Below, one piece after another: positions 1,630 through 63,657 of a stretch of 64,000 nucleotides of DNA. The position numbers were made by a program, and so were the translations under genes. The notes beneath the pieces are model-generated. The model saw only the letters and a program-made list of their open reading frames with translations. It was not told where the DNA came from and searched no databases. The DNA comes from a virus: the IMG/VR virus record IMGVR_UViG_3300024344_003209, positions 1-64,000 of that record; one strand, given 5' to 3'. The first letter of the stretch is position 1. The number at the start of each line of letters is the position of its first letter.

Positions 1630-1907
1630 GGTGATGATGCGTGACACTTGTAACATTTAGTTTGAATAAGCCATTCGTCGAGATTAATCAATTCATCTTT
1701 AAAAGAAGAATCTCTAGGCCCAGAAAATCCGTTTTCGTCGTAGCCTTCCGAATAATAAAAAATAGTCAGTTGCCTTCTATAATTGTGACATTCAGCAATT
1801 TGAGCTGCATCTTTAGCTTTAGAAAGCGCAGATAATAGCATTCCTACTAAAATAGTAATTATAGACAATGTGATTAAGAGTTCCAAAATTGTATAGCTTT
1901 TATTCAT
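1626..1907 (-). CDS. short prepilin/pseudopilin-like protein
   Basis: Class III signal MNKS|[28 protein letters not shown] with Glu+5, then C.N.RQL; start moved to ATG 1907. Confidence 0.8.
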
Positions 1908-2880
1908 GGTAGGGCTTCCATGTTGGATGATGCCCCCAGCTATCGTTCCAATACCAGCCCCAAGAATCATAAACTTTCCCATTTACCTCTCTTGTATTCC
2001 AATCCCTATCATATCTAGCTATCCCTCCGATAACCGATCTCCAATTATGATTATTGTAATCAGTCTCTGTGGATCTTTCTCCTAGCCATTTCAAATCACG
2101 ATTATCAGGACTAACATACATATCTCTTGTGGTAGTTGGATTTTGAAGATGCTTAGGTATGTTTTTAGTATCTTCCTCTAGCCATCTTTTAAATTCAACG
2201 TGAGCATCAACAAAAGAAATAACTGAACCATTATTATGATAGACACCGGGCCAGTCCATGGAGAACGCATGCTCTTTTCCTTTTAATACTGGGGGAACTC
2301 TGAAATTCCCAGCGTTAATTGAGTTTGGAGGCATCTCAATAAAAGTAAAAGTTTTGCTAGTGTCTTTTACTTCTTCGTAGCGATGATGTATCTTGTATTG
2401 CGTGTCTTCCATAAATGGCCAGCCAGACCATCCTCCCACAAAAATATTGACACTATACGAGCGCGGCCTCGATACTCTCTTTGTCTTCCAATCTTCATTT
2501 GGGGATTTCGACTCGTATACTACAGTAGATCTATCGCCGGGGCAATGAAAGATGTTCATCCCTGCATAAGGCTTTAGAGGGGAGTAGAATAAGGGTCTAT
2601 CAGTTTGGCCCCAAGCTCCGTTACCGCTCATGCTGTCAGCTACCCAAGCCCACATTCCTGTCGGTTCATTTCTCCAAGCAGAAGCATAGGGGAATCTATC
2701 TTCGTGATCTCCAGCAAATTGGGTATAAGCTAGATTCAGTTGACGTTGATTATTTAAACAACTGGCTTGCCATCCTGTTTGTTTTGCGGAGCCGAGAGCT
2801 GGGAGTAATAAAGCAGCTAATATTGCAATAATTGCAATAACAACTAATAACTCTATTAAACTAAAAGCCCTTTCATTCAT
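1900..2880 (-). CDS. prepilin-type N-terminal cleavage/methylation protein with H-X9-DG-like C-terminal motif (PVC-type pseudopilin)
   Basis: RA|[59 protein letters not shown]. Confidence 0.9.
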
Positions 2881-6908: not shown

Positions 6909-6917
6909 ATTACACTA
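6909..6917 (-). promoter_or_regulatory. TAGTGTAAT motif (candidate phage late promoter)
   Basis: CTAGTGTAATTAATATAGATG. Confidence 0.55.
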
Positions 6918-20644: not shown

Positions 20645-20653
20645 ATTACACTA
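20645..20653 (-). promoter_or_regulatory. TAGTGTAAT motif (candidate phage late promoter)
   Basis: TAGTGTAATTAATAATATG directly before the start codon. Confidence 0.6.
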
Positions 20654-32154: not shown

Positions 32155-32183
32155 ATTATAGCATCAACTTAAAAATTTGTCAA
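32155..32183 (-). promoter_or_regulatory. consensus sigma70 promoter
   Basis: TTGACA-17-TATAAT with extended -10 TG. Confidence 0.85.
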
Positions 32184-32185
32184 CA

Positions 32186-32701
32186 TTAAGTTGGAAGTAT
32201 TTTTATGAGCTGATCGTTAACTCTAGCAAGACCCTCTGGTGTGTCTTTGCCTTTCATTTTAATTTTAATTTTTGTTAAATTTTCTTGACCTCTGGTCCCT
32301 GTTATTTGAGCGGATAGCTTATTATTGTTGTTGTTTATCTCGTCTTCGAAGTGGCTAAGATTTACAGATAGCTCCATCTCGAGCTCGTCAATAGCTAAGT
32401 GAGCATTATTAGTCAGGGTTATTAAGGGTATATGTGTCTCTGTTACTTCTCCGTTATTTCCGGGAAGTTTTACCTTAAAAGTTTTTGCGTTCCCATCGCT
32501 GTCAAAATATGTAGACATTACCCTGCCTAAATGCTCGGTCTCTACTTTTCTTTGAGCAAAAGCGACAGAATTATATATAGACTGAACTAACTTATCTAAT
32601 GAATTAGAATCCTCCTGACCACCTTGCCCCTCGCTTGAAAGCGAGGGTTGGGGTGGTTCGGTGGGAGGTGAAATTCCTAAAGAATAATTAGTTAATCCCA
32701 T
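32186..32701 (-). CDS. DUF2589-like protein (short paralog)
   Basis: IPLITL....L.IDELE.EL and PEGLARV motifs shared with the neighbour. Confidence 0.75.
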   Translation of the reverse strand: MGLTNYSLGISPPTEPPQPSLSSEGQGGQEDSNSLDKLVQSIYNSVAFAQRKVETEHLGRVMSTYFDSDGNAKTFKVKLPGNNGEVTETHIPLITLTNNAHLAIDELEMELSVNLSHFEDEINNNNNKLSAQITGTRGQENLTKIKIKMKGKDTPEGLARVNDQLIKILPT

Positions 32702-32714
32702 TTATTGTCTTGAT

Positions 32715-33344
32715 TTACGGGCCTGCGGGGGCGGGTGCTGGGGCTGAAGCTCCACCTTGAGGCGCGGGTTTGATAGCGTCTCCTAATATATCCAGCACTT
32801 TCATTAGACCTTCTGGGGCTCCATCATCTCTTGCTTCACAGTGAACCGTGTACCTAGCTGAGTTATCACTCTTTCTTGTGTTTTCGCTCTTACTACCTAC
32901 AGAAGCTGTAACTGAAGCGCTAACAGGAGACCACCAAGCTTTATAATTCGCTTTAGTCGTAACGTTCGCTGTCGTTGAACTTTTGCTTTCGCTAGTAGAT
33001 TGAACCTTCATATCAAAGTCAATCTTAACATCTTTAACAGATAAATTTGGGGTATTTACGATAGCTAAAAGAGGAACCTTCATGGTTCTAGGTTCGGCTA
33101 CAGTAGTAGTGGTTTCTACTCCATTACCATCAGTACTTTTGTGCTCCACAACAGCATCGTAGTCGAACTCAACAGTTCTGGCACTAAGTTTTCCTGTGTT
33201 AGAATCTTTTTCTAGCCCTACTTCTTCGATAAATTGCTCGGTAATTCCGGCTAATTTACCTTGGGCTTGAGCAGCCGCGATAAGTGGGTTTGCGATGAGC
33301 TCGCCAATTGGGAGCCCTTTAAATTGATCTGATATACTAGACAT
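32715..33344 (-). CDS. DUF2589-like protein (long paralog with Ser/Thr-rich insert)
   Basis: F.GLPI.ELIA.PL.AAA.AQ..LA, VPLLAIV..PNL.V..V.IDFDM.V, SARY.V...A, PEGL.KVLD.L. Confidence 0.8.
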   Translation of the reverse strand: MSSISDQFKGLPIGELIANPLIAAAQAQGKLAGITEQFIEEVGLEKDSNTGKLSARTVEFDYDAVVEHKSTDGNGVETTTTVAEPRTMKVPLLAIVNTPNLSVKDVKIDFDMKVQSTSESKSSTTANVTTKANYKAWWSPVSASVTASVGSKSENTRKSDNSARYTVHCEARDDGAPEGLMKVLDILGDAIKPAPQGGASAPAPAPAGP

Positions 33345-33367
33345 AATATTTATATGTTATACATTAA

Positions 33368-33376
33368 ATTACACTA
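33368..33376 (-). promoter_or_regulatory. TAGTGTAAT motif (candidate phage late promoter)
   Basis: AATAGTGTAATTTAA upstream of the DUF2589-like pair. Confidence 0.6.
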
Positions 33377-33378
33377 TT

Positions 33379-34170
33379 TCACAACATATGTAGCTTTTGT
33401 TTGGCTTGAGCTATCATCCATCTGTCCTTCTTGTCTAAGTGTGAACGAAGGTGGTCATCAATCTGCCTAAGCATCTCTGGTTTCTCTCCCATATGATGAT
33501 CTCTAACTTTCTGAATTCCTTGTACTACTTTAAGAAGCGTACCTGTCGCTCCTGAGGCTGGCATAGCAAAGGGGGCTACCATTGTTACTATCTTAAATCC
33601 TATGGCTAAAACAACTAGGAATACGACAACACCAACAATCCAATATACTTTGCTCATTAGGCTTGAGTATTTAGTAGCTTGTAGTGCATTTTCTTGGTTT
33701 ATTGCTTTTAATTTGGTTTGTGCGTTTTGTAATTGACCAGACAAAATTCTATTTTGGTTTTGAATAGCTATTAGATCTTTATCCATAGTAGCTAAAATTT
33801 CTTTCCCTTTCTTTACTTCTGATGGGTCGGTTGAAAGTAGACCGTTTACCATTTGATCAGACTTCATAGCGTTCTCCATCTGAGGAGGTCCAAGTGCTGT
33901 AACCCCTCTAGTGGTCATTTGTTTAGCTACTTGAGACTGAGGTGAGGGGTCTGGGTCTTTTTGTAGGGCTTGGTCTGCTGCGTATACAAACGTCCTTCCG
34001 CTTTCTACTTTTTTTGTATCGTTATTAGCTTTCTCTTGTTGTATGTTCTCTACAACTTTCTCTTGTTTGTTAAACTTTCCTAATGGAGTAGCGCAGCCAC
34101 CTAGAACGACCAAAGCTAGAGCCATAATATAAAAAACATCTTTAAAATAGTTATTTTCTTTTTCTCTCAT
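33379..34170 (-). CDS. lipoprotein with coiled coil and C-proximal TM helix (unimolecular-spanin-like architecture)
   Basis: Lipobox LALVVLGG|C, heptad-rich middle region, TM segment VYWIVGVVVFLVVLAIGF. Confidence 0.55.
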   Translation of the reverse strand: MREKENNYFKDVFYIMALALVVLGGCATPLGKFNKQEKVVENIQQEKANNDTKKVESGRTFVYAADQALQKDPDPSPQSQVAKQMTTRGVTALGPPQMENAMKSDQMVNGLLSTDPSEVKKGKEILATMDKDLIAIQNQNRILSGQLQNAQTKLKAINQENALQATKYSSLMSKVYWIVGVVVFLVVLAIGFKIVTMVAPFAMPASGATGTLLKVVQGIQKVRDHHMGEKPEMLRQIDDHLRSHLDKKDRWMIAQAKQKLHML

Positions 34171-37447: not shown

Positions 37448-37490
37448 ATTATAAAATTAGCTTGACTTTTTGTCAAGTCTTTTTTAAAAT
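37448..37490. promoter_or_regulatory. overlapping divergent sigma70 promoters
   Basis: Minus strand TTGACA-17-TATAAT (37476->37448); plus strand TTGACT-17-TAAAAT (37462->37490); inverted repeat CTTGAC-N5-GTCAAG. Confidence 0.85.
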
Positions 37491-37901: not shown

Positions 37902-38323
37902 TACTAGTAAAAATAAAGAAATTAAATAGCGAAGCTCAAATACCATCTAGAGCTACTTTGTCGGACGCAGGTTACGACCTTTACTCAAACGAATCGGGCT
38001 GTATACCACCTAACAGTAGATCAATAGTAAAAACAGGTATCTCTATAGCTATACCTACGGGTTATTACGGCAGAGTCGCTCCTAGATCGGGTTTAGCAGT
38101 AAAGTTTGGCATAGACGTACTAGCGGGAGTAATAGATTCAGGGTATAGAGGAGAAATAGGAGTTGTTCTACAAAATCTTTCTAAGGATTCTTTTAACTTC
38201 AGAGAAGGAGATAGGATAGCTCAATTGATCCTAGAACAGTGTAATAGTGTGGAGTGGGTTGAGCTAGACCAACTAGAGGACTCACAAAGATCAGATGGAG
38301 GCTTTGGCAGCACAGGTAATTAA
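37898..38323 (+). CDS. dut: trimeric dUTPase
   Basis: AGYDL, APRSGLA, GVIDSGYRGE, GDRIAQL, R..GGFGSTG. Confidence 0.97.
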   Translation: MILVKIKKLNSEAQIPSRATLSDAGYDLYSNESGCIPPNSRSIVKTGISIAIPTGYYGRVAPRSGLAVKFGIDVLAGVIDSGYRGEIGVVLQNLSKDSFNFREGDRIAQLILEQCNSVEWVELDQLEDSQRSDGGFGSTGN

Positions 38324-38669
38324 GACAGTAGCGGCTTCTTTTGCTGCTTCTGGAATTTTATTAATATGGTTTAATACTGATTCTTTTGTTCAGTATATTA
38401 AGTTGTTTAGGCTATCTAAGTTTACTTATATAAAAGAGTATGAACAAGAGCTTTTCGAAAACCCTGATTTAAAATATTTAGATTTTGCTTATTTTAAAGA
38501 GCCATCTTTTTTTAATAAATTAATTAGCTGTCCTTATTGTTTATCTTTTTGGATATCTTTAGTGTCTGCTTTTATAGCTACTGATAACTTTTTATTAGGT
38601 TTTGTTGTCTACCCAATATCTCTAATAATCTACTTTAGTTTTATTAAAATTTTTTTAAAAGATGCCTAA
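38295..38669 (+). CDS. membrane protein with CPYC motif (DUF1360-like)
   Basis: LISCPYCLSFW followed by hydrophobic helices. Confidence 0.6.
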   Translation: MEALAAQVIKTVAASFAASGILLIWFNTDSFVQYIKLFRLSKFTYIKEYEQELFENPDLKYLDFAYFKEPSFFNKLISCPYCLSFWISLVSAFIATDNFLLGFVVYPISLIIYFSFIKIFLKDA

Positions 38670-46237: not shown

Positions 46238-46576
46238 CTACCATTTGTCAATAGGACATTTCTCTTGAGTAAAGTACGCTTTAAGCGGCACTACGCATCC
46301 ACACTTTTGGCATCTTTCTCCTTTGTCTGAAAACCAAGGGCAGCTTCTGCATATGGAAGTTCTTTTTGAGTAAAGTTCCTGTTTAGCTACTATTTCTTTT
46401 CCTTGTAAAGCTGCCTTTGTAGTATTAGCGATACTTCTTGTTATATTTTTCGCCATTTTGAATCCGCTAGGCATCTTCACTACTTCTTTTTTTTCTAAAT
46501 TTTTTAAAGATCTAGTTCTAGATGTACTTCCGAAGGAAGGCTCTTCTCCCGCTTTTTCTTTATACTCGTTAGCCAT
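46238..46576 (-). CDS. Cys-rich small protein (DUF6171-like)
   Basis: R..IC.SC......RC.KCGC...LK......CP..KW. Confidence 0.65.
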   Translation of the reverse strand: MANEYKEKAGEEPSFGSTSRTRSLKNLEKKEVVKMPSGFKMAKNITRSIANTTKAALQGKEIVAKQELYSKRTSICRSCPWFSDKGERCQKCGCVVPLKAYFTQEKCPIDKW

Positions 46577-49500
46577 TTTTCATCAAGTCGAACCTTAGTT
46601 GCTCATCACTAATCATAAAGACTTTTCTACCAAAAGGCGAACATTTATGAACACAAGGGCCTGCTTGGAAGTTTTGGTTAAACAAACCATCGGATCTTCT
46701 AACTATCATTTCTGTTTTGTTCGTACCGTAAACAGCAAGAGCCTGAGTAAATTCTGGCTCTATTTTAAATGTTTGTTTTCCAGCAGACGGATCTATTCTT
46801 TCTCTTGATGAAAACTCAAATTCTTGCATAGATGGCCCTATGATATCATCTCCATCAGCTAAGCCAAAATATTCTTCGTAACTTTGTACGTTACCTGTTC
46901 CACCTCTAACATCTCCGTCGGTGCATAAGCTGTGATAGCCTTGTTCCTTGTCGACTGTTCCTATCTTTTCGTTTTTACATATACCTCTAGTTTGCAGAAT
47001 TGTTCCATTTATGTTTTCTATCTTACCTAATCCATCTTCTCCTACAGCGCTCTTAAGGAAGCTAGGCGAAGGCACTATCTCAAATTCTGTCCATTCTATA
47101 GTTGTCTTTAAAAACGTAGACCAAAAAGGTTTTCCGCTTATCTGACACCCAAATATTATTTCGTTCTCGTAAGAAGTGTCTATTATTTCAGATCCAGCTA
47201 TATTGACAATAGAAACATCAGTATCCATAGTTTCGCTTGTAATATCATATTCCTCACTTGTATAAACTAGTTCGCCCCCGAACGCAAAAGCTCTTCTTTT
47301 ATTTAAGTTTGGCAAATCTAATCCTTTCTCTTGCGTAAGAACTTTTCCAGCACTATCTCCAGATACATCTCCATACGAAGCAGGGAAACAAAATACCCCA
47401 TTCTCTTCTGGTATATTTACCTTATTAGGCAGGCCTATATCTTTGGGAATATAATTTGCATCAAACACTTGATCTGTTTTAAACTCTTCAATATCATAAG
47501 TAGCTTTAGTTATATTTGACTTTACTTGACCCTGCAGCCCTTTAAAGCCGGAGAACCAAGCTCTCTTATATTTCTTTTCTTTATGGTCGTAAAAATCTAT
47601 AAAATTTTGCTTAGATAAAGCTTCGTATGTTAATGCTTGATAACTTTCATTTATTCTAACAATCTCTTCTCCTGCATTGCTAGGATCTTCCGGAGAGAAT
47701 GTCATATTAGCCATATCCTCTACATACCTATATTCATATTTTCTATATTTTCTTACCTTTGCGAACACAGGAACATAAGCCCCCAAGAATCTCATGTTAT
47801 TAATAGTTCTAACATAATTATTAAAGACTTCTCCAGTAACAGGAGACGTAGGATTAATACCAAACCCTTTAGGTAGGCTAGGATTTTGCTCTCTTGAAAA
47901 AGAACTTAACCAAGGTTGAGATTTATTGGCTATCTCATTTTTTACAACTCTATATTCCGCTATAGAATTATTATTAACTATTGCTGTTAAGACAGGTTTA
48001 GTTGGTTCTGGGAAAACTTCCTTCTCGCAACTGCCGTCTTCTTTTATAGTTACAGATATCTCTTGAGTAGCTTCTCTTTCGTCTGCTTCATATAGCCCTA
48101 AATGCTTACTGCTTTCTGTGCCTTGTAAATCGCTATATTCATCTTCTGTTGAAATTGCGTAAGATTGAGTATCTTTTATTTCTATGTTACGTTCGTTTAA
48201 ACTATCTTCTCTTGCTTTAATTTTTCTTTCTATATCTTCTACAGTGTTCCAGTTATCGCTTTCTGATACAGCATTTAAAGTATTAACATATTTAGTTAAT
48301 GTAGTTTTAAAATCTGCTATGGCTTGAGCACTTTCTGAGTCATCTACCCCAAAAGACTCCTCGACATATTCTGCTAAAGCTTCTGCCTCATCAGCTAATA
48401 TACCAAAATTCTCTTGGCATTCTCCCGTATCTTCTGTAATATTATTAACTGTGACATCGGCCGTCTTTACCCCTTTATGCTCTGAAAGCGATATATAAGG
48501 CATCTGACGCTCTTTATAGTCTATTGAAATCGAAGAAGCCTGAGTGGCAGTAGCCTGTTTACTTAGTGTGAATTGAGTCAAGCTGTTTATCTTTTCTACT
48601 CTTGTGTCAGAGGGTACGCCAGTTCCCGAGACTCTAGCTCCTAATATTATATTCTTTTGTCCATCGTGATTAACTAGTTTACTATTGTTAGTTAAATTAA
48701 AAGTATGAGTAAAGCTAGAATCCTGTATAACCATACTATGAAAAACAAAAGGAATATCGCCCTTCGCCCTATCTATAACTTTTTGCTTGCCTGCTTCAGA
48801 ACTTACATCAGAATATCCAGCCCCCGAGTCAGAAACCTCTACATAAATAACTTTTCCTGACTCAATATGAGCTATAGCTTTCGAGGTTTTAGTTAGTAAT
48901 CCTTTTTTAGGCTCCGGATCTTCTATTACAATGTCAGGAGCGACCCTGTAGTCAGAACCACCGGACTCTATAACTACCTTAGATATTCCTCCTACTGCTA
49001 TTTTATCTACATAGGATGCTTTTAGTCTATGGGAGAGTCTATACTTATATAATCTCTCATGAGGTATATTAATGTCGTAATTATCAGCTACCCTAGAGTA
49101 TTCATGACAACCAAAAAGACTTACCCCTTCCTTAGGAATAGATATAGAATTCCCTATTAAATGGTTCTCAGCGAGATCAAGGCTAAATATCCCATCTACA
49201 GACTCGCCTATATCAGACTGCCTTATTACAGATCGCCAATCAAAGGGAAGCCTCATTAACTCATTGCGTCTAAAGTGTTTTAACACCCCTTCGTCGTAAT
49301 ACTGGAAAGTCTCATTTTTTATAGCCATCCTGTAAGTGCCAGTAAACGAACCCGCAGTACCAGAAGAACCAGAACTTCCCGAGCTCCCTGAAGGACTAGC
49401 CCCTAAGGAGACTCTAAAATTTTGTTTGTCGTCTATCTCTATGCTTAAATTTTCCTTTCCTGAAACCTGAACCCAGCTACCAGACTCTAATCTCTGTAAG

Positions 49501-52500
49501 TTAAATCTTATTGACTTAGGTTTATTTCTAAACGAAGAAGAGCCATCGTCTTTAGGAGGCTCGAAACCGTTAATAAACCCTTTGACATGGTCCTCCGTTA
49601 AGCTAAAAGACAACTCCATTCCGCCGTCAAGTAATACTGGGTATATGTATTTAACTGTTGCTGGTAAAGGCCCGTCATAAGCTAGCCCGTGATCAGTTGT
49701 AGTACTCCTTAATAATTCATATTTTTTATCAAGACTAAATAACCTATCTAAATTTTCGGTATAAGAAAATGAAGAAGGAGTAAATAGAACGTGCTCTGAA
49801 TCTGCATTGTAATTATTTAAATTAGGTACTTGATAGTCCATATAATCAGCAGCTATGGTATCATCGTTAGTTGTTTTCTTTATTTGGTCAACATAGTAAG
49901 CTGACTCAGTTATAAATATAGAAGTATATAGAGTTTCTAGTAAATCTTTCTTTGCGTCACTAAATAAAAACTCCTCTGTGTCTTGCGCATCAAAATGAAA
50001 AAATGTTTCAGTGTTAAAATCCTTATATTTATAAAGTATTTCTATTTCTCCATTTTCACAGATAAAATAATCTAACTTCTTGCCGCTAATAGAAACTTCA
50101 GCCCCATTAATTAAAATCTTAGCTTCGTCGCCTTCGCCCTCTATATTGCCTCCATTTAATATATATCTATATTCTTTTCCTTTCGTTAGCTTGACTACTA
50201 CTCTAACCTCTTTGTTAAAAATACTTACAAAATCTATAGTAGTATTATTTCGGAATAATATATTTTTAAAGCTTGCAAATATATCTAAGTCATGCCAATA
50301 AATATTCTCATCCAAATCTATTAAAGATGTTCTAGCTTTAGTTTTGTCTCGGTTATTTCCTGTTAAGTCACTTTCGTTAGAGACTAAACCCTCAGCGACA
50401 GCAGATAACTCTAAGTTCGCTCTAACAGAAAATACATTTCCTTCTTGGGTGTATATATTATCTGAAGTTGTAGCAAAAGCTTCGGCTGTATTCGGGCTTT
50501 CGTAACTATCCTCATTTTCCTCGTCAGAAACCCCGACTGAATAATCTTTATAAGAAGGTCTTTCTAGATAAAATCTCTTATTGTTCACTATAATAGGAAA
50601 GTTAAGAGACGTATATTGAGTATCGTCTATTCCGTGATCGTATATTTTATTAATTACCGGATTCTGTCCCCTGTAACCATCTACTCTTCGCCCTTTGTTA
50701 TCTAGTTGAGGCTGCAGGTTGAAGTAGTTTACTATTTTGTATTTATTACCAGAGAACCCTGCGCTGTCTATAATATTAACAGCATCGTAAGTTAAATCTG
50801 TATTTCGTTCGTCGTTATCAAATACATTTAGCACTTCATATAAATTAGAGCCCTTTTCTTCCCCATCTGCTGCTACAGCAAAAATTCTTAAAAAGTACAC
50901 TCTCCCTGCTTTTATTTTATTAGGCCCAGATGTTCCTGCATCATGTTTGAATACTATAGCATCTCCGTTATCTACATTATTTAATCTTATAAAAGTCTTT
51001 CCATTATCAGTAGTCGCTTCTATATCGTTCCATCCACCAAAAGTATTAAGTTTTGCTACTCCTCCGGGTCTTGCTATGTCTTGATAAGATATTGATTCTA
51101 ACTCAGAATCTAATATATATCTAAGTTTAGCTTTGCTTGTATTATTTGTTAGGTATGTTCCTATTTTAGCATCTTTAGTTAAATCATTAAATACTATTTT
51201 TTTGTTAGTTAATTTTTTTAATCTAAACCTAACGCTACTATAAGAAGCTTTATCTCTATTTAAATTAAATCTGAATCCAACCATTGGGTCAGGCCCAGAA
51301 TGCACCCCAAAAGGAACAAAAGAATATCCATGATTATTTTTTAAAGACAAATGAGCTTTATGATTTCTTTGGTTTATCTCTATTTGATTAGCCTTCATGT
51401 ACTCATCAAGAGGCAGGAGTCTTTCGTCTGCATCTCTAACCTCCTTGCTTTGTTGTTCATATCGAGCTTTTATTCTGTCCATAGCTTTTACGCTTTGCTC
51501 TTCTGATATGGCTGAAGAAAAATCTTCATTAAGGCTTCTTACAACCCCGTCGGGAGCAAAAGGCGCACTGTCTTTATCTTCTATAGATAACCTTATTAAG
51601 TCGTGAGGAGCAGAATTTAACTTTAAGGAAGATTTTATCTTGTACTCATAAGCAGGAGATTCTATGTTAGACTGATTTCTTTGATTCTTATATCCAACTA
51701 AATTAACTCTTACCCTTATAACTTTTTCAACTTTATCTTCTATTGTTATCTTTTCATCCCCTGATTGAATTATTGTATAATCTGAAGCTAAGGTGCCCTC
51801 TAGCAATGGTATAGTAAATTCAAAATTTCTCGTGTGGTGCCAATTACCTTTTTCATATTCGTTAATAACAAAAAGACCACCACCTTTTTTATCTACTTCA
51901 TTAATATATCGCCCCTCTATATTTTTTATTTTTCTTCCCTGTATGAGTTCATAAGCAGCGCCGCTTGACACTTTTTCTTCTACCACCGCATTTAGAAAAT
52001 TATTTCTATGTTCGTTAAGAGAAACCTTACTCCAAGCGGGAGATTTAACAGCACTAGTGGGGTCATCTATTTTACTTTGAAATATTTTAGCAAAATCTGT
52101 TTTTTCGTCAGATTTAATAGAGGCGTCTTCAGCTGAATCATCTATATCTTCTACTCCGTATTGAGAAAATTTTAGATCAAAATGATAAGGCATATTTAGC
52201 TTATATTCAGTTAATCCAACACCTTTTATTTTTTCTCCGGGTCCGTAAACTTCTCCATTATACGTTAAAGTAACCTCTTCTGAGTAATCTTTTTGTTCGT
52301 ATTCCTTTTTATTAAAGAGTCTACTGAAATTATCTATTTCAATATTATTTAAATCATAAACAAAATCATAATCAAAAACTTCTTCCGACTCAAAAGAATG
52401 GTATCTATCCGGCTTAAAGCCTGATAAAGTTATTTCGCCTGTTCTTTCGTTAAAGTGAGAGCATTTTGTTATTCTTTCGTGGCCAGTATTGAGACCGTAA

Positions 52501-55500
52501 GCAATTATATCTTGCTTCATATCCCAAGGTATTTTTAAATACATTGGGCTAGTCATAGACGATATATCTTTCTTAAAAAATACATCTCTTTTCACGCCCC
52601 TTTGATTACTAAAGAAAGTAACACCAAATTTATATGCATCATTGTAATCTTCTATAGTTTGAAACCCTGTCTGGCCTTCTTTAGGCTCGTTTTTATTAGT
52701 GTTGAATATATTTGAAAATTTATACCTAGCTCCCTCATATTGAACATTAATGCCTCTCTTCTCTAATGTCCTCTCCATTTGCCATTCTTTTTCGTCAAAG
52801 TATGTTGGGTCTTCTATTAGATGAGGTATATCTAAATCTGTAAGCTTAATAAACCAATCTTCTCTTCTTTGCTTTCTTATTTCTGAATATGTTATATCGG
52901 TAGATGAAGTGAAGTCGGCTCTTTCACACGAGTAAACAGGAGAACTATAATTAATCAATTCATCCTCCTCGTTACTTTCTGAGTATTTTACATTTATTTC
53001 TCCATTTGAAATATTTGCTATCTTTAAATTATCAACACTTGCTACTTCTACATCTGCATTATGAGTTAAAATAAATACCTTGCTTGCGTTTGGAGTTATA
53101 GAGTATTTAGGTCTTACTAATTTTGTTCCTGCTCCCCAACTTCCAACTACATAAGAATTTTTAGAAAGTTGTAAATCCAAGCCTTCCTTTAAACAATCAT
53201 TCCCTGATACGTTTAAAAACACAGTTCCAGACTGTATAGTTCCCTCTACCTCAAATGGATCTTTAAATACTATAGATTTATTCGCATAAAGAGACTTTCC
53301 GCAATAAAATCTACGAAGAAACGTTCTTTCCTCATCTAGGATGTCTTCATTATATAAGTACCTAATTAGGTCAACATAGGATTGCTTTTTAGTAATGTTG
53401 CCAACCGCAGCTTCTCCGGCTTGAGTTATGTTATATAAGTTCTTGCCTGATAAAGACGCAAACCTATATGTGTCCTCATCGGCATCATAATCCACTGTTC
53501 CTTCTAGATTGAATTTGTATACATTTGTATCTTTTAGATTTCCCTCTATATCAAACCTATTATACAAAGACAAAGATATATTAGCTGACTTATCCAAAAT
53601 ATAATCAAAGTTTTTCTTTGGCAATAATATTTTATCATTCGCCTGAGACAACCTAAACTCATCCAGCCTACAGCCTATATCCACTAAGTCAAAGCTCGTT
53701 GAACCATTATTAGCCACGCTAAAAGAAATTGGGCCTACTGCGGGTATATTTTTTACAGAGCTAGCGGCATCCATTATAGAAAATCCATTAAAAGACATAG
53801 AAATAACAGAAGGAATCCCGCTTTTTCGGTCTTGATCTACTGTATCGCTAGAAATAAAAGGAATAAAGTCAGCGCTAAAAAACTGCGGAACGCTGAAAGA
53901 TCTAATGACTTGATCATTAAATAAAATAGCCTGTTTCTCGTATAACCCTTTGTCTAAATTTACTGTACCGTCTTTAATCTGCTTTATTAATCTATGTACG
54001 TTGTCTTTGTTTTTTAATACTAGAGCAGCAGAGCTAACTAGCATGTGCTTATCTTTATCTACTTGCAAGGTTTGGCTACTACCTATCAGCTTAAGGCCAA
54101 GGTTTGCTCCTGAGTTATTTATTATGTTTGTTTGTGGTATTTCATTATTTATAATAAAACTTGAGCTCTGCCTAGTCACGGTGAAAGCCTTTAAATCTTT
54201 CCTATAAATGCCCCTCTCTACTACTGTGCAATCAGAAGGGCCAGAAGATGCGAAAGCGTTTGAAGCATAACTTATTTTTATAAACTTACCCGACGCTAAT
54301 GTTGTGTTAAAAACCGCAGACCCTTCAGGAGAGGTTATCTGTATTGAGTCTCTAGATCCATTTATTATTATAAAATCAAAATCTCTTGTTATTAACTTTC
54401 TTCTCGGTAAGGATATGTTAGTGTTATCTGCTACAGATATTATAGCTCTATTTTTTTGTTCGCCATCTACTGAGGAATCAGAGAACAAAGCTTTAGATTC
54501 TTTTATTTTTAATAACTTTGCATCTCTTAAATCTACATTAACTAAATTTGATTGATAAACTTCTACTTCCGATTTTTCTCCTATGTCTCCTAGATTAATA
54601 TCGCCATTTATATAAAAAGCAGAGAACCCAGTATCATTGTAAGCAGAAAAGTTTGGCGAAAGCAGCTCTGCTACAGAAAACTGCAAAGCTTTATTTTTTG
54701 GCAACAAAGCAGGAGTTAAATCCTGATCGTAATATTTATCAAACCTACCGCCACTGTGAGTAAAAGATCTGTAAGCCCCTCTAGACGGTATAATTTTTTC
54801 ATTGATAAACGACTGCAAATGAGAAGAGAGAACAGCCGATTCAGCTCCACCGTTACCATCATAACCCTTAGCTGTAACAGACACATCCTCATATACAGTA
54901 TTGACTAAATTAAGTTTAACCAAACCCTCTTCCCCCACTCCCATGATCTTATAAATTGATTCATCGGCATGAGAAAAGTCTGTTTCGTCAGGAAGGACTA
55001 AGTAATCATTTATTTTCTTTGAGTCCGCAACGCTTAGACCTTCGTAATAAAAACCAATAGTAATTGGGCATTGAATACCAAATATGTTATATTTTTTCTC
55101 AGAATTTAAGTCTGCAGAAGAATAAACAAAGTCATCAGAAGTGTTTGCTGGATCAGTATCTTGCTCTATCTCTATATAGGTAAAGTATTCTCCAGAGTCG
55201 TCATCAAAAGCAAATTGAGCCAGTTCAGCAGTATAAAATTTAGAGGAATGCAATTTACCTTCAGAAGTTAAGTTCTCTATACCGTAGCTATCTGCTGATT
55301 CATAATTTATATTAACATTAATTGGCTCTTTAGATATATTAGATATAAAGAATTTTGTGTTTTCATCATACGCAGCTTTACCATAGTCATCCCCTATATT
55401 ACTTGAGACGTATGGCCTTAAGAAATTAATATCTCCATCTACTAAAATCTTCTTATTGTGATGTATGCTATGGTCAATAATTATATCGCCGGGTTTCATT

Positions 55501-58500
55501 ATGAAAAACTCAGCCGTCGATCCTTTTGTGACTTTAGCTATTTTGCTATCTTCGTCTATATCAAAAGTATAACCATTAACTTCATTAACATTAAACAAAG
55601 TATGATTTGTTGGATCACCGTAATTATTTTTGTCATTTATGAATGCAACTGAATCTGAGTTTAAAGTAAACCCTGTAGTATTATTAAAATTTTCAACCCT
55701 AACAGGCCTATCATGAAGATTAACAACAGCTACCTTACCACCATTAGAGCCAACTAAATCTTCTAGGTTAGCCCAATTATTTGGTAAAACTATTTTTAAA
55801 TCATCGCTATGCTCATCTGGCTTAAAGAATATAAAATTATGTTCAAGTCCTGAATCATCAGCCTTACTCAAATATTTTCTGTCTAATACGTGAAGCTCAT
55901 TTTTTGGATAGTATATTATATCGCTAGCGTTAGCAACGGTAGAGTTTTGATCCTGCTCAACAAACGTGCCACCGCTAGTGTGTTTTGCAACTCTGTTCTT
56001 TTTAATTTCATACTTAGCGTTATTATTAGTGTTAGATATAGCGACTTTACTTAAGCCCGCATTTATATAATAATCACCATCAAAATTAGAATCAGACAAG
56101 TCTGCCTTAGCATGAAACTTACCACTTAAAAATACAGTATCCTTACCTTGAAGGCTCTCTACAGAGCAGGTATCAGTGCTGCCATCCTCTGTGTACCCTG
56201 TTACGTAATGAACGCCGGAAGGAGTACTACTGCCACTTGTGTATACGTTAGAGTAATGCTGTTGCAATGATGCAGTTTTATTTATTTCTAGAGACTCAAT
56301 TAGCTGAACATTGTCAGAGAAAGTCTTTATAGCTTCCGCAGGGGCGTTATTAACTATGTCTAAACTAGAAGTGTCAATATTGTTTACATAAAAGGTATCA
56401 GTCAACCTTGAGTCCTCTTTTTCCAACCTTTCGTTAGTACTTAGAGCAGAATCTAAGTAAAGCTCTATATTATTACCATCTAAAACTTTTACAAAATATG
56501 TTTGCTTTCTAGATTCAGAAGAATCATCATCTGCAGAAATAGTCAAGCTGAACTCAGTAGCGGTTTCTGTAGAAAGGCCTGTTTTATTTCCAAAGAAATC
56601 GTACATCTTAGTTGTACCTTTTATATAAGCAAAAAGCCTATTTACCTCTACGTCGCCAGCCACTAACTTCCTAGAGCTAGTGTTTAAACCTAAAACATCA
56701 GAAAAACTATAAGGATAATCAAAGTTGGTTTTAATTAATTTGTAATCCGCCCCTCTATAGTAAGTAAAGTAATATGCACCACTAAGATAACAAAGAACGC
56801 TATCACCATCAGAGAAGCCTTGTGGGTTCTGCGGGGAAGTCTGGTTATGGTAATCATCCGGATCTCCAGCATAATAATGATCTGCTACTATAACCTTTTC
56901 GCAATTAAAAGTCAACTTTTGATATGTAGTCAAACCATGGTTTTTAAAATTAAATTTATTAGTACTAAAAGACAGGTATTCAATAAATTCACCTTCAGCA
57001 TTAAACATTGTTTCCATGTTTTTCTGCGAGTACTTGTGCTCTTTTTTTGTATAAATGTCTTTTTTAATCGCCGACTCTAAATATACATTATCTACTGATC
57101 CATCTAAAACAACAAAGTCGCCATCAGATAAATCTTGTGAATGATTTTGCGTCTTATTAGTATATACAAAATTATTATAATCAGTTTCTTTTCTTTCCGA
57201 CTTATCGTACAAAAAGTTAGTAGAACTAAATTCTGCAACTTCTGATATATCAAGCAAAACATCACGAGAAGAAGATTCTGCAGGTAAGGAAGCTTTAGCT
57301 CTAGTTTTAGCTAGATTGCAAAACACTAAATCAAACGGGTGATCATAAGTGTTGTCATTGATCGTAGGTAACTCAAGACCTAGGTCTTCGCTTCTGTTCA
57401 CTATCACTTTTTCCCCAGTCGAAGAAGGTTGATCAAATTTATACCTATCTGACTGGTCTAGCTCTTCGATCACAAAAGTAAATTGATTTTTACTTCTTAT
57501 AGATATAACTCTTTCTTTTGACAGCGGGGTATTATAGTAAAATCCAATCTCATCACCATACTTATCCACAAACTTAACCGACTCATCATCGGAAGATAAA
57601 CCAATCAAAACATCCTCATCGACGTCTTTTTTAGAAGTAACAAAAATTTCAAAATTACTATCGTATCTATCAGAGGCGAACTTAAAGTCTATTGAGCCAC
57701 CTTGACCTGAGTAGGAATATACTCCCTGAAAGTCCTCATTGCTAACTGAGACCTCGTTAAAAACTATAGGTTTTATATCTTTAAACTCGAAGTCAGACCC
57801 ATTAAATTTAATTCTAGTGCCAAGACTATTGCTTGGGGCAGTGTACTTCAAGACTCCATTTATAAAAATTCTCATCACAGGAGTAATCCAGTCCTCCCTG
57901 CTACCCTCTATATTAAAATTTTCTATTTGATTTCTAACTACATTTACGTATCTACCACTAGCTATAGTCCCTGTTATTTTTATGTCTACGTCTTCGTTGT
58001 GAACTATAGTGTTACCTGCAGATGCGAAATGAGAACTAGTTAAATTTAATTGATTATAGCTTACTACTTCGATATCACTTGCCGCCCAGTTGTTATTATT
58101 ATAAGTAAATTTTCTAGCTGCTTTGGGTGGTATATAATCTGTCAGTTTAGAGTTAACTGTATGACTAGAATTTTCTGCTAAAACTTTAGTCTCGTAATTA
58201 GTTGCGTTAAGGAAAGTTATATGCTGGCTGTTAGATAAGTTGTTTGGTAATATTAAATCTGCACTGCAATCAATAACCCCTGTTATGTTAGCATCATCGT
58301 TTGTCAGCTTTATCTTGTCGTGCTCCATTATTATAGCATTGCTATCTACGCTACCATTAGTAACACTAAGAGAACTAGTCGAAAGATTGATCACTTTATT
58401 AGTGCTGCCGCCAGCTATCGTAACTTTAGAGCAATCTTCTACGACAACTGGGTCATTTGTATCTGTTATTGTGGCAACAGGAATAGGTGTTTCTACGCTT

Positions 58501-61500
58501 CCGTCATTAGCTGTTATATTTAATACATCAGCTGGAATCGAGCCAACAGGATTTGATGATGCGGTATTAGCTACACTAGCCCCGGAAACTATAAAAGTTT
58601 TACCTTTGTCATCTTCTGTGGCTATTAAGTTGCTAGTTATAATTGGGGGGTTGTAAAAGTTGTCTACAGGAGAAAAAGTGAGACTACTAACGCTTGTTAG
58701 GGTTGAGGTGCCTCCATCACCAGTAGTAGCTGAAGAGCAAGAAAAATTAATTATTTTGTCATTATTATCTTTTAGTTCGTCGAAATGACTTCCAGTTATA
58801 GATGGGGTTACAAAAGCTCTTGTCTCTTCAGCAGGAAGTCCAAAAAGCTCAGCGTCTCTTTGGGTTCCTAAATAGCTATCTTCTTTTCTTGTCAATAGTA
58901 AACCGCTAGGCTTAGGCCCTAATACGGTATTTATGTTAGATAGAGAACTAGAAAAGCCTCCATTTTTACGTATCCTGACACCAGTTAAGCCAGCTAAAGA
59001 TATAGGTTTAGATGTTAAAGACGACTCACTAGATACAACATCACCATCTACGTTAGTTTGCAAAGTTTCTATTTTTAACTCGCTAACCAAGTCTTTATAT
59101 ATATTTTCACTTGTATTTTTTATTAAATAATACTCCCTTGTAGGATCAAGAGTAACGACAGCATCTCCGGCTGAATCTATAACTGTATCGCTAGCCTGCT
59201 GTGTTATATTCACAAGAGTCTGGCTAGTTGGCATAGTCACATCTAAAGGTAAGAAATTAATCTTTTTGATTACTTTAGTTAAATCATTTTCTAATTCTAT
59301 ATTCTGTTTCTTTTTTATTCTAAACTCTATTTCTTCTGGTCTATACTTTCTAGTTATATCTGTCCTCATTAATATATAAGGTATGGAGTTTACTACTTGT
59401 ATATTATTGAAAGAGTCGGCTCTGTTTTCTGTATAATCATTATTATAAAAAATTCTCTGCTCAACAGAAGTTGATGTAGGCTCGACATCTGACCAAGTCG
59501 TACCGGAATTCAAAGAGTATTGCAATTCATAATCCCAACCCCTTTGAGAGCTATAAGAATCTTTAGTGCCAAGATCTCCTATTAGTACCGCATTTTTAGT
59601 ATATATTTTATATACGTATTTAGTTATTCTTAATCTAGATCCAGCGGAGAACGCTCTTCTGTCTATGTCGTCTCTACTTGTTATGTAGTTGCCTCCCTTA
59701 ATGTTGGATCTTATAAAACCTATATCTTCCCCCGCCACATCTTCATAAAGGTAAGGGGCAGCTAGGAAGTCTTTCTTTGCGTCTTTTGCTCCGTCTTTGT
59801 ATTTATAACTTTCAAATCTTATTCTGTCTATATCGCTTATTGATGTTATAGGAGAACCTTCATAATTTTTATTTATATGAGGGTTATTTGGTGCTTGATA
59901 TGCGTACCCCCTTATATAATTAATCATAGCCCTACTTGAGCTAACGCTTAAATTATCTGACTCTGAAGATGAAGCGAGCCACTCACCCATATGGTAGGTA
60001 TCTTCCTCGTTTGTATTTTCTTTGTACTCGTTAGGTGGAGCTACATTGTTAAAAGAATTTTTATTTGTTATCCAGTTTCCGGGAACAACTTCTCTTCTAG
60101 ATAAGAATCTTAAAAGCTTATACGACCTAGGGTTAGCTTCTTTCTCTAATACTGGCGGAGAAGGCTTAGCGAACGTCCCATTTATCTCATTCGATTTACC
60201 AACATAAAGCCTAATGTTATAAAGCCTACCAATAAAACCATCCCCAATAACTAAAGATTTATTATTTTTTGCCTCTAAGTCATTAAATTCAAAAGCATTA
60301 TTTGTTTTCTCTTTGCCATCGACAAATAATTTTAAATCTATTTGTTTAGTTGACTTATTAAAAGTTGCAGATATAGCAACATGATGCCAAGTATCATTAG
60401 TTAAAGCTGACCACGTTATCGCATCTTGTCCAGATATTTTAAATTCTAATACATGGTTAGGCTTCATTGAAACTTCTATAACACCAGATTTGGTAATTAT
60501 TTTTTTATCTTGAGATCCGTTAGGCTTTATCCAAAAGTCCAAAGAGAAATTACCTTTTAAGATATTAAAAGATCTATGGCTACCTAAATCAAGCTTATCT
60601 CCGGCATCAAAGACCATAGCTTGGACAGATGTGCCAGATACAGTATCTGAAGTTGTAGTTACATGAGGATTATTGCTATCATCTTCATTTACGTTGTCTA
60701 TCTTATGCTCAAACTTAGACCAATCATAAATAGAGTTGCTGGCTTTAGATTTTAATATTAGACTATCAGCGGATTCATTAACGGTCCTTATGTTGGTTTT
60801 ATTAGTAGTGATCCTTGACTTAGTCCACTCGAGAGCCCTTATTTTAAGGTTGCTTGAAGGATTATTAAACGTTGAATTTTTTAAATTCACAGTTAAGCTA
60901 GAAGAGTCTAAAGCTTCTAAAGCTGGGCATACTTGAGACCAATCGCTAGTTCCGTCCTTTGCTTGTATCTCATAATAAACTCCCGCAGTGGGATTCTTTA
61001 TTGTTATGCTCCTTTCTCCTGCAGTTGACCCAGCGAAAGTCAAAGGGTCGGATGCATTTCCCTCTCCAGTAACAGAAATACCATCGTAAGACAAAACCCC
61101 TATTGCTTCATTTGCCCTAGAGACCCTATTGTTAACCAAGCTACATCTAAAATTGTCAGGCTGGTAAGTGTATACGCTATCTGTGTTAACTAAATCTATG
61201 TCAGTTATTTCGTAGTTGCTATTATTAGAATAGTGAAACTCATCTCTAACTTCGTTATTCAACAAAAAGTAAGAAGGGTCTTTAAAAGGAAACACTTGTT
61301 GTGAAATATGAGGCTTTTGGTAGACCTGAGTCATATATAACTTCTCCTCACCTAAAGCTTCTGGGTTTCTGGTAGAGGGGTTAATAGAGAATGGACTTAG
61401 AGCCTGCCCTTGTTTAGAAGAAAAAACAGAAGGAGAATAGTTATTAGCCTGAGTAGAATTATCAGAATCAATATATATATCTCTTTCTAAATAGAAAACA

Positions 61501-63635: not shown

Positions 63636-63657
63636 CAAACCTTAAACCTTGCACTTA

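Follow-up and report, generated by a model that had tools for sequence, protein, structure and literature searches.

The first 64 kb of the 99,223-bp record of a large uncultured marine phage in IMG/VR (IMGVR_UViG_3300024344_003209; completeness estimate 67%), which we call the window, encode two adjacent proteins of the family DUF2589 (Pfam PF11655). We refer to the long form as A and to the short form as B. Studying this pair in the window, in other phages and in bacteria reveals two paralogs with a conserved pairing, a common fold topology, a patterned hairpin in A and a transcription unit of their own, and, in bacteria, an operon link to cell wall hydrolases (lysins) that carry no signal peptide. 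We tentatively read A and B as a membrane-inserting hetero-oligomer which forms a pore or a lesion, a reading which we favour and to which we give somewhat less than an even chance.

The paralogs A and B and the hairpin of A

Both genes are located on the minus strand with a spacing of 13 nt:

32715-33344, minus strand: DUF2589 A-type protein, 209 aa (Pfam PF11655, 112.7 bits, E 2.7e-32)
32186-32701, minus strand: DUF2589 B-type protein, 171 aa (Pfam PF11655, 65.5 bits, E 9.1e-18)

The gathering score of PF11655 is 23 bits, the matches cover positions 1-152 (A) and 2-153 (B) of the 154 positions of the model, and the DUF2589 match was confirmed on the DNA. In a pairwise BLASTP comparison the two proteins are 21% identical (E 0.06), and their (V/I)PL(L/I)x(I/L) and PEGL motifs are aligned with each other. 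A comparison of the A profile with the B profile by hhalign results in a probability of 99.1% and an E of 8.5e-19. Judged by these alignments A and B are true but distant paralogs. A preliminary description of this DNA, which was made from the letters alone, had proposed adjacent DUF2589 paralogs sharing PL..(I/L) and PEGL, and this is borne out by the Pfam scores, the BLASTP alignment and the profile match.

A consists of an N-terminal amphipathic helix, four long beta-strands, a Ser/Thr-rich hairpin (about residues 116-160), a C-terminal helix with the PEGL motif and a Pro/Ala/Gly-rich tail. B starts with the peptide MGLTNYSL and a Pro-rich disordered linker (residues 1-31), followed by a helix/strand/helix core like that of A, and the amphipathic hairpin is absent. 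The MGLTNYSL start (window 32600-32701), which resembles a short docking motif, is invariant within the clade of the window, while the Pro-rich linker behind it is variable. Beyond a conserved Pro, A continues with a variable tail rich in Pro, Ala, Gly and Ser (median 14 aa), B terminates at that Pro, and the bacterial forms run on from it into coiled coils. Neither A nor B contains a signal peptide or a hydrophobic helix, no 19-residue segment of either protein reaching the hydropathy threshold, and no PHROGs family matches them.

DUF2589 has no assigned function and the papers found mention the family only in passing; a passage of one article (PMC3949148), for example, mentions a cluster of DUF2589-related genes in Archaeoglobus (AF0414-AF0417). 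The family is spread over bacteria, archaea, phages and giant viruses. In a word-index search 518 homologs of A were found, many of them in Tara and other marine samples at 60-98% identity, and A comprises 1337 representative clusters at 50% identity. In an even sample of 301 genomes of one phylum only four harbour the family. The DUF2589 pair is a patchy accessory cassette.

For the analysis of neighbourhoods, related loci were retrieved with a subfamily alignment and with a single protein as queries, open reading frames (ORFs) were called and the neighbouring proteins were clustered. The viral comparison set comprises 80 loci from marine phages, and the bacterial set 80 loci from gut Lachnospiraceae and Oscillospiraceae, Treponema and Chitinispirillales. 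A and B are adjacent in essentially every viral locus with sequence on both sides, the exceptions being situated at or near the end of a locus, and the pair is present on at least 169 uncultured phage contigs. Exactly two DUF2589 copies are found in 77 of the 80 bacterial loci and in five out of five whole genomes. The gene order is A then B in the clade of the window and B then A in other clades, the pairing being kept, and one phage group has a B stop codon that overlaps the ribosome-binding site of A. The pairing of A with B is the rule across phages and bacteria. A is more conserved than B, as examples from the viral loci show (61-64% versus 45-49%, and 47-50% versus 28-32%). With the other PF11655 A+B cassettes the phage pair shares the two-paralog arrangement, the N-terminal helix F-GLP...PL-AA, the motifs VPLLAIVP, NTR-SD-SAKY and PEGL, and the A-type hairpin.

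The hairpin statistics and the AlphaFold2 alignment of A are based on 95 A-type sequences. In these proteins the last two core strands enclose a segment of 36-65 residues (median 45) in which Ser accounts for 22% and Thr for 11%. The period-2 hydrophobic moment of this segment has a mean z of 2.16 in comparison to shuffled sequences, and z is above 1.64 in 74% of the 95 proteins. In the family columns 126-136 and 141-149 the residues A/V/L/F/Y/I alternate with S/T/K/E/D, the tip follows the pattern G/W - W/F/Y - G/S - P, and Ser/Thr/charged tracts are present on both flanks. The equivalent segment of B has about 33 residues and is rich in K, N, E and D. The Ser/Thr-rich alternating segment which the preliminary description had assigned to the long protein only is therefore confirmed across the A-type sequences, and the WW turn it mentioned turns out to be the local version of a conserved aromatic and Gly/Pro turn. 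Each strand of the hairpin contains about 13 alternating residues and would therefore be long enough to cross a bilayer. These patterns support the assignment of a membrane-type amphipathic beta-hairpin of membrane-spanning length to A, which B lacks.

The AlphaFold2 model of A (mean pLDDT 78) consists of a helix (residues 13-43), three strands (57-71, 77-91 and 105-120), a further strand (157-172) and a second helix (178-190). Residues 121-157, between two strands of 16 residues each, have a pLDDT below 50 and are disordered in the monomer model. In the model of B (mean pLDDT 61) the elements follow in the same order as in A, after a disordered N-terminus of 31 residues. A sequence search of the PDB found no solved relative, BFVD contributed two unnamed viral homologs and nothing further, and the ESM Atlas had no usable neighbour.

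Beta pore-forming toxins of the aerolysin and ETX-MTX2 type are secreted and attack from outside, and the insertion hairpins of the aerolysin type show an alternating amphipathic pattern with Ser/Thr-rich flanks. The A hairpin resembles those of these toxins, being strictly alternating and Ser/Thr-flanked, and in the monomer of the toxins, as in that of A, the hairpin is either disordered or packed away. Unlike these toxins, the DUF2589 proteins have no signal peptide, and no fold similarity was detected.

Bacterial operons with signal-less wall hydrolases

The strongest functional clue is the occurrence of the pair together with signal-less hydrolases of unrelated families in bacteria. The recurrent bacterial operon comprises genes for a lysin, B, a protein of about 97 aa, A, a protein of about 94 aa, a STAS protein, a 365-aa protein and a Cache-HAMP-SpoIIE-HATPase sensor, and upstream of it there are often genes for LytTR regulators or for small tyrosine recombinases. 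The lysin cluster (Amidase_2 + Phage_lysozyme) is represented in 41 of the 80 bacterial loci, on the same strand as the pair, and all 46 lysins are without an N-terminal hydrophobic segment. The lysin is also present in the Treponema loci, where the gene order is different. On a deltaproteobacterial plasmid the same-strand cluster with the pair ends in a signal-less muramidase (PF11860) which is unrelated to the Amidase_2/Phage_lysozyme lysin. No protein with a membrane helix, and hence no holin of that kind, was seen in the bacterial operons inspected.

Holins, which are small and have one to four membrane helices, represent, to our knowledge, the only established inner-membrane route for signal-less endolysins. 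As in holin-endolysin(-spanin) cassettes and in 'type 10' secretion, the bacterial pair stands beside a signal-less enzyme of the endolysin type and takes the place of the holin. Unlike holins, the DUF2589 proteins have no membrane helices and so do not qualify as holins by definition, and the phages examined showed no endolysin next to the pair. The bacterial operons support a membrane-breaching, holin-like role for the pair. The lysis genes for which the preliminary description wanted the neighbourhoods surveyed are present in the bacterial operons in the form of signal-less lysins, whereas no lysin was found near the pair in the phages examined.

The phage forms differ from the DUF2589 proteins of gut bacteria in that they have no coiled-coil C-terminal extensions, no third partner of about 94 aa and no adjacent lysin. 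In bacteria the pair is hardly ever found without this partner, a conserved soluble protein for which Pfam has no family (L098 4054-4338 plus 56 further loci). In some loci of Treponema and Chitinispirillales (L087 7480-7899 and similar ones) B and A are separated by a gene for a truncated third DUF2589 paralog of 139 aa (hhalign with the B profile: probability 80%, E 1.4e-5). Homologs of the 94-aa, 97-aa and 139-aa partners were found neither in the phage loci nor in the genome to which the window belongs.

Transcription and neighbourhood of the pair in phages

In addition to the pair, the window encodes a ribonucleotide reductase (RNR), a DnaE-type polymerase, DnaB, a RecA-like protein, a sigma factor and genes for nonulosonic-acid synthesis. 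The following elements border the pair:

33379-34170, minus strand: spanin-like protein, 263 aa (lipobox LGGC, periplasmic coiled coil, membrane helix 178-200, 60-aa cytoplasmic tail)
33368-33376, minus strand: promoter-like element TAGTGTAAT, 24 nt ahead of the ATG of A
32155-32183, minus strand: perfect sigma70-type promoter (TTGACA-17-TATAAT with TG), immediately past the stop codon of B

Exact copies of TAGTGTAAT occur five times in the window, compared to 1.04 expected, and none of 100 shuffles reaches five. All five are on the coding strand immediately upstream of ORF starts, so that the motif noticed earlier in front of the pair holds up as a recurrent element. The 99 kb record contains eight copies, seven of which precede an ORF on its coding strand at a distance of 7-32 nt from the start, and in related phages a GTGTAA core is retained about 14 nt before the A gene. 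At three sites (window 6909-6917 and 20645-20653, genome 91803-91811) the element lies only 7-8 nt ahead of the ATG; if it is a -10-like element, the mRNAs starting there would be leaderless or nearly so. The sigma70-type promoter at 32155-32183 starts an operon with Maf-like and NeuB genes and marks the end of the A/B unit. Because TAGTGTAAT lies in front of the pair and this promoter directly behind the stop codon of B, A and B form a two-gene unit of their own, which appears to carry a phage-specific signal amid operons of the sigma70 type. A second perfect sigma70 consensus promoter (12/12; 37448-37476, minus strand) precedes a non-coding stretch before the phage sigma factor gene.

TAGTGTAAT also precedes two giant ORFs, of 5689 aa (window 46569-63638) and 2134 aa (genome 79246-85650), and a block of unknown genes at 64-99 kb. 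Only this promoter-like motif, common to the pair and the giant genes, suggests a late expression of the pair. None of 17 other genes tested in the 64-99 kb region, whose structural nature would have tied TAGTGTAAT to late genes, matched Pfam or PHROGs.

The same motif raises the question whether A and B are virion or assembly proteins (decoration, tube-like or scaffolding proteins) that are co-regulated with giant structural genes. Its copies before the 5689-aa gene, the 2134-aa gene and the unknown block would fit such a role, as would the conservation of A-type proteins across marine contigs, which reaches 98%. However, the bacterial pair is found in operons with regulators and lysins, no capsid, portal or tail gene is among the annotated recurrent neighbour clusters, and elsewhere in phages the pair stands beside RecE/RecT or RNR genes, outside structural modules; nor does any structural PHROG family match. 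Because of the bacterial operon context we rejected a role in the virion as the main explanation, and regard it as very improbable.

The protein encoded at 33379-34170 has the topology of a unimolecular spanin, with the lipobox L-G-G-C at residues 23-26 and the membrane helix 178-200 kept in six orthologs. As in lysis cassettes, the pair in the clade of the window adjoins a lipoprotein with a membrane helix and a spanin-like topology. For a spanin, the extra 60-aa cytoplasmic tail, which is almost invariant, is unusual, and so is the location in an operon driven by sigma70 that also holds a glycosyltransferase gene. The gene is the last one of the upstream operon and is separate from the A/B unit. 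In three of the relatives (L006-L008) an additional lipoprotein gene (83-91 aa) is situated between the spanin-like gene and the pair.

In other phages the pair has different neighbours. In a group of about 33 loci it follows RecE, RecT and a 219-aa gene, and faces a convergent block of small membrane proteins together with a protein that has a partial match to an endolysin-type PHROG. In another group it follows the RNR genes. A 200 kb relative encodes near the pair a 514-aa ankyrin-repeat protein with a weakly nucleotide-cyclase-like C-terminus (L031 12919-14463), and next to this gene are genes for small lipoproteins and for membrane proteins. Type IV pilin-like N-termini (e.g. MKHGFTLLELLLAI) occur in further proteins of this phage group (window 1900-2880 and L027 12330-12605), and the N-terminus of the window protein at 1900-2880 matches pilin-type PHROGs.

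A possible route through the membrane from the inside

We propose that A and B, which have no signal peptide, would be cytoplasmic subunits of one hetero-complex and would co-assemble via their common helix/sheet core. On a trigger, the hairpin of A (about 2 x 13 alternating residues with an aromatic Gly/Pro tip) would extend and insert into the inner membrane from inside, resulting in a beta-type pore or lesion, while B, which has no such hairpin, would take part in the assembly or regulate it. Through this lesion the signal-less peptidoglycan hydrolases of bacteria would gain access to the wall, so that the job of a holin would be done without membrane helices. In the phage the pair would be transcribed from the phage-specific promoter common to the giant, presumably virion, genes, and late in infection it would make the host membrane permeable or depolarise it, to support lysis or possibly to exclude other phages. 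The preliminary description had already suggested a late-expressed, membrane-inserting hetero-oligomer used in lysis, exclusion or competition. The conserved hetero-pair, the hairpin in A only and the bacterial lysin operons speak for this interpretation, while no pore-former fold was found and the argument drawn from the spanin is weak.

Several observations weigh against a membrane role. The hairpin is polar overall (mean hydropathy -0.8), and the hydrophobic/polar alternation is present in the core strands too, so that it could simply mark the packing of a sheet face on protein. A Foldseek search of the PDB with the A monomer gave no match at E <= 0.001, and no fold of the aerolysin or gasdermin type, for which the preliminary description had suggested this check, appeared, the hairpin itself being below confident modelling. 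VIA-align against 48,161 chains reached a best Z of 4.2 with coiled coils and found no pore-former fold, and PADLOC has no match for A or B. As to lysis genes, a search for seven common lysin families gave no match in the 99 kb record, which does not prove their absence since the record is estimated to be only 67% complete. Three of these families were also sought in five larger relatives, of which two are complete; none is encoded near the pair, the sole match being a weak lysozyme-like one about 25 kb away in a complete genome of 200 kb. No viral pair has a match to the bacterial lysin profile closer than 10 kb. The small proteins encoded at 15-263 and 38295-38669 of the window, which have two or three membrane helices, could be ordinary holins. 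The context of RecE/RecT or RNR genes points to an early or middle timing in those phages. Finally, the spanin-like gene stands beside the pair only in the window and in five close relatives (L005-L008, L028). The preliminary description held that this neighbour strengthens the lysis reading; we rejected it as strong evidence, because it is specific to one clade and part of another operon.

Alternatively, A and B could form an assembly in the cytoplasm (a filament, cage or scaffold, for example) that stays soluble and does not enter a membrane at all, the hairpin being an inter-subunit arm that orders only in the polymer. The proteins are acidic and hydrophilic (pI 5.1 for A and 5.2 for B; GRAVY -0.33 and -0.59), the coiled-coil extensions of bacterial A and B (110-200 aa) are typical of self-assembling proteins, the alternation extends to the core strands, and in many phages the pair is found among replication genes. 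However, a soluble assembly leaves unexplained both the repeated operon link with unrelated signal-less wall hydrolases and the conservation of an aromatic-tipped, Ser/Thr-flanked hairpin in 95 diverse sequences, and we consider it unlikely.

A further comparison concerns Pepco (Trypco1/Trypco2), whose 117 aa include an amphipathic helix (Evans et al., bioRxiv 10.1101/2025.11.14.688446). Pepco pre-assembles as SDS-resistant beta-barrels of 9-10 subunits and becomes active when its Pro- and charge-rich C-terminal tail is removed (bioRxiv 10.1101/2025.11.14.688446). Like Pepco, the DUF2589 proteins are small and cytoplasmic; an amphipathic helix at the N-terminus precedes the beta-strands, and a hydrophobic residue is followed by a Pro-rich unstructured C-terminal tail. 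Unlike Pepco, which is a homo-nonamer or -decamer, DUF2589 proteins are larger, occur as two paralogs, have no protease or sensor and are linked to wall hydrolases. The context that defines Pepco, a neighbouring trypsin-like or caspase-like protease fused to a sensor (STAND/vWA-MoxR), is absent: no protease was found in the neighbourhood in the window or in the bacterial operons. No match of Trypco2 (PF19631) to A or B of the window was obtained by hmmscan. When the A and B profiles were compared by hhalign with a thin Trypco2 alignment of five sequences, E values of 0.013 and 0.018 at a probability of about 3% resulted, in the region of strand, GSVS hairpin and strand. A search for more Trypco2 proteins gave one weak match in 251 genomes of one phylum, five proteins in a homolog search, two loci in a metagenome scan and none on plasmids. 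Because the Trypco2 alignment could hardly be enlarged, the relation to Pepco stays a lead on a possible mechanism, and does not amount to evidence of membership.

The pair could also serve counter-defence or superinfection exclusion, either as a decoy or poison subunit for host beta-barrel effectors of the Pepco/Trypco2 type or as a gate that blocks the DNA entry of other phages. Weak Trypco2 matches are found in three of the 95 family members (best E 0.086), the A and B profiles both pick the equivalent strand-hairpin-strand region of Trypco2, and Pepco serves defence systems as a pore that a protease activates (bioRxiv 10.1101/2025.11.14.688446). The patchy occurrence of the family (4 of 301 genomes) is also often seen for conflict genes. 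However, the Trypco2 similarity is not significant and unrelated families were matched equally often, neither in phages nor in bacteria does the pair stand together with a gene for a protease or a sensor, and PADLOC recognizes neither protein. We therefore regard such a role as improbable.

Returning to the membrane-inserting hetero-oligomer, a broader view, which we advance only with considerable doubt, is that the A/B proteins of DUF2589 represent a new and widespread class of inside-out beta-pore formers that do the work of holins though devoid of membrane helices, and are possibly a distant sister of Pepco. In bacteria they would release lysins under partner-switching or LytTR control, and in large marine phages and giant viruses they would form a self-contained membrane-breaching unit on a phage-specific promoter. 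If true, a hetero-oligomeric beta-hairpin device would be a second route for signal-less endolysins, and a Pfam family of unknown function with more than 1,300 representative clusters (50% identity) would gain a function. With its two genes the pair would also be a compact permeabilisation module that lends itself to study, and a highly conserved gene pair of marine phages, present on at least 169 uncultured contigs, could be annotated.

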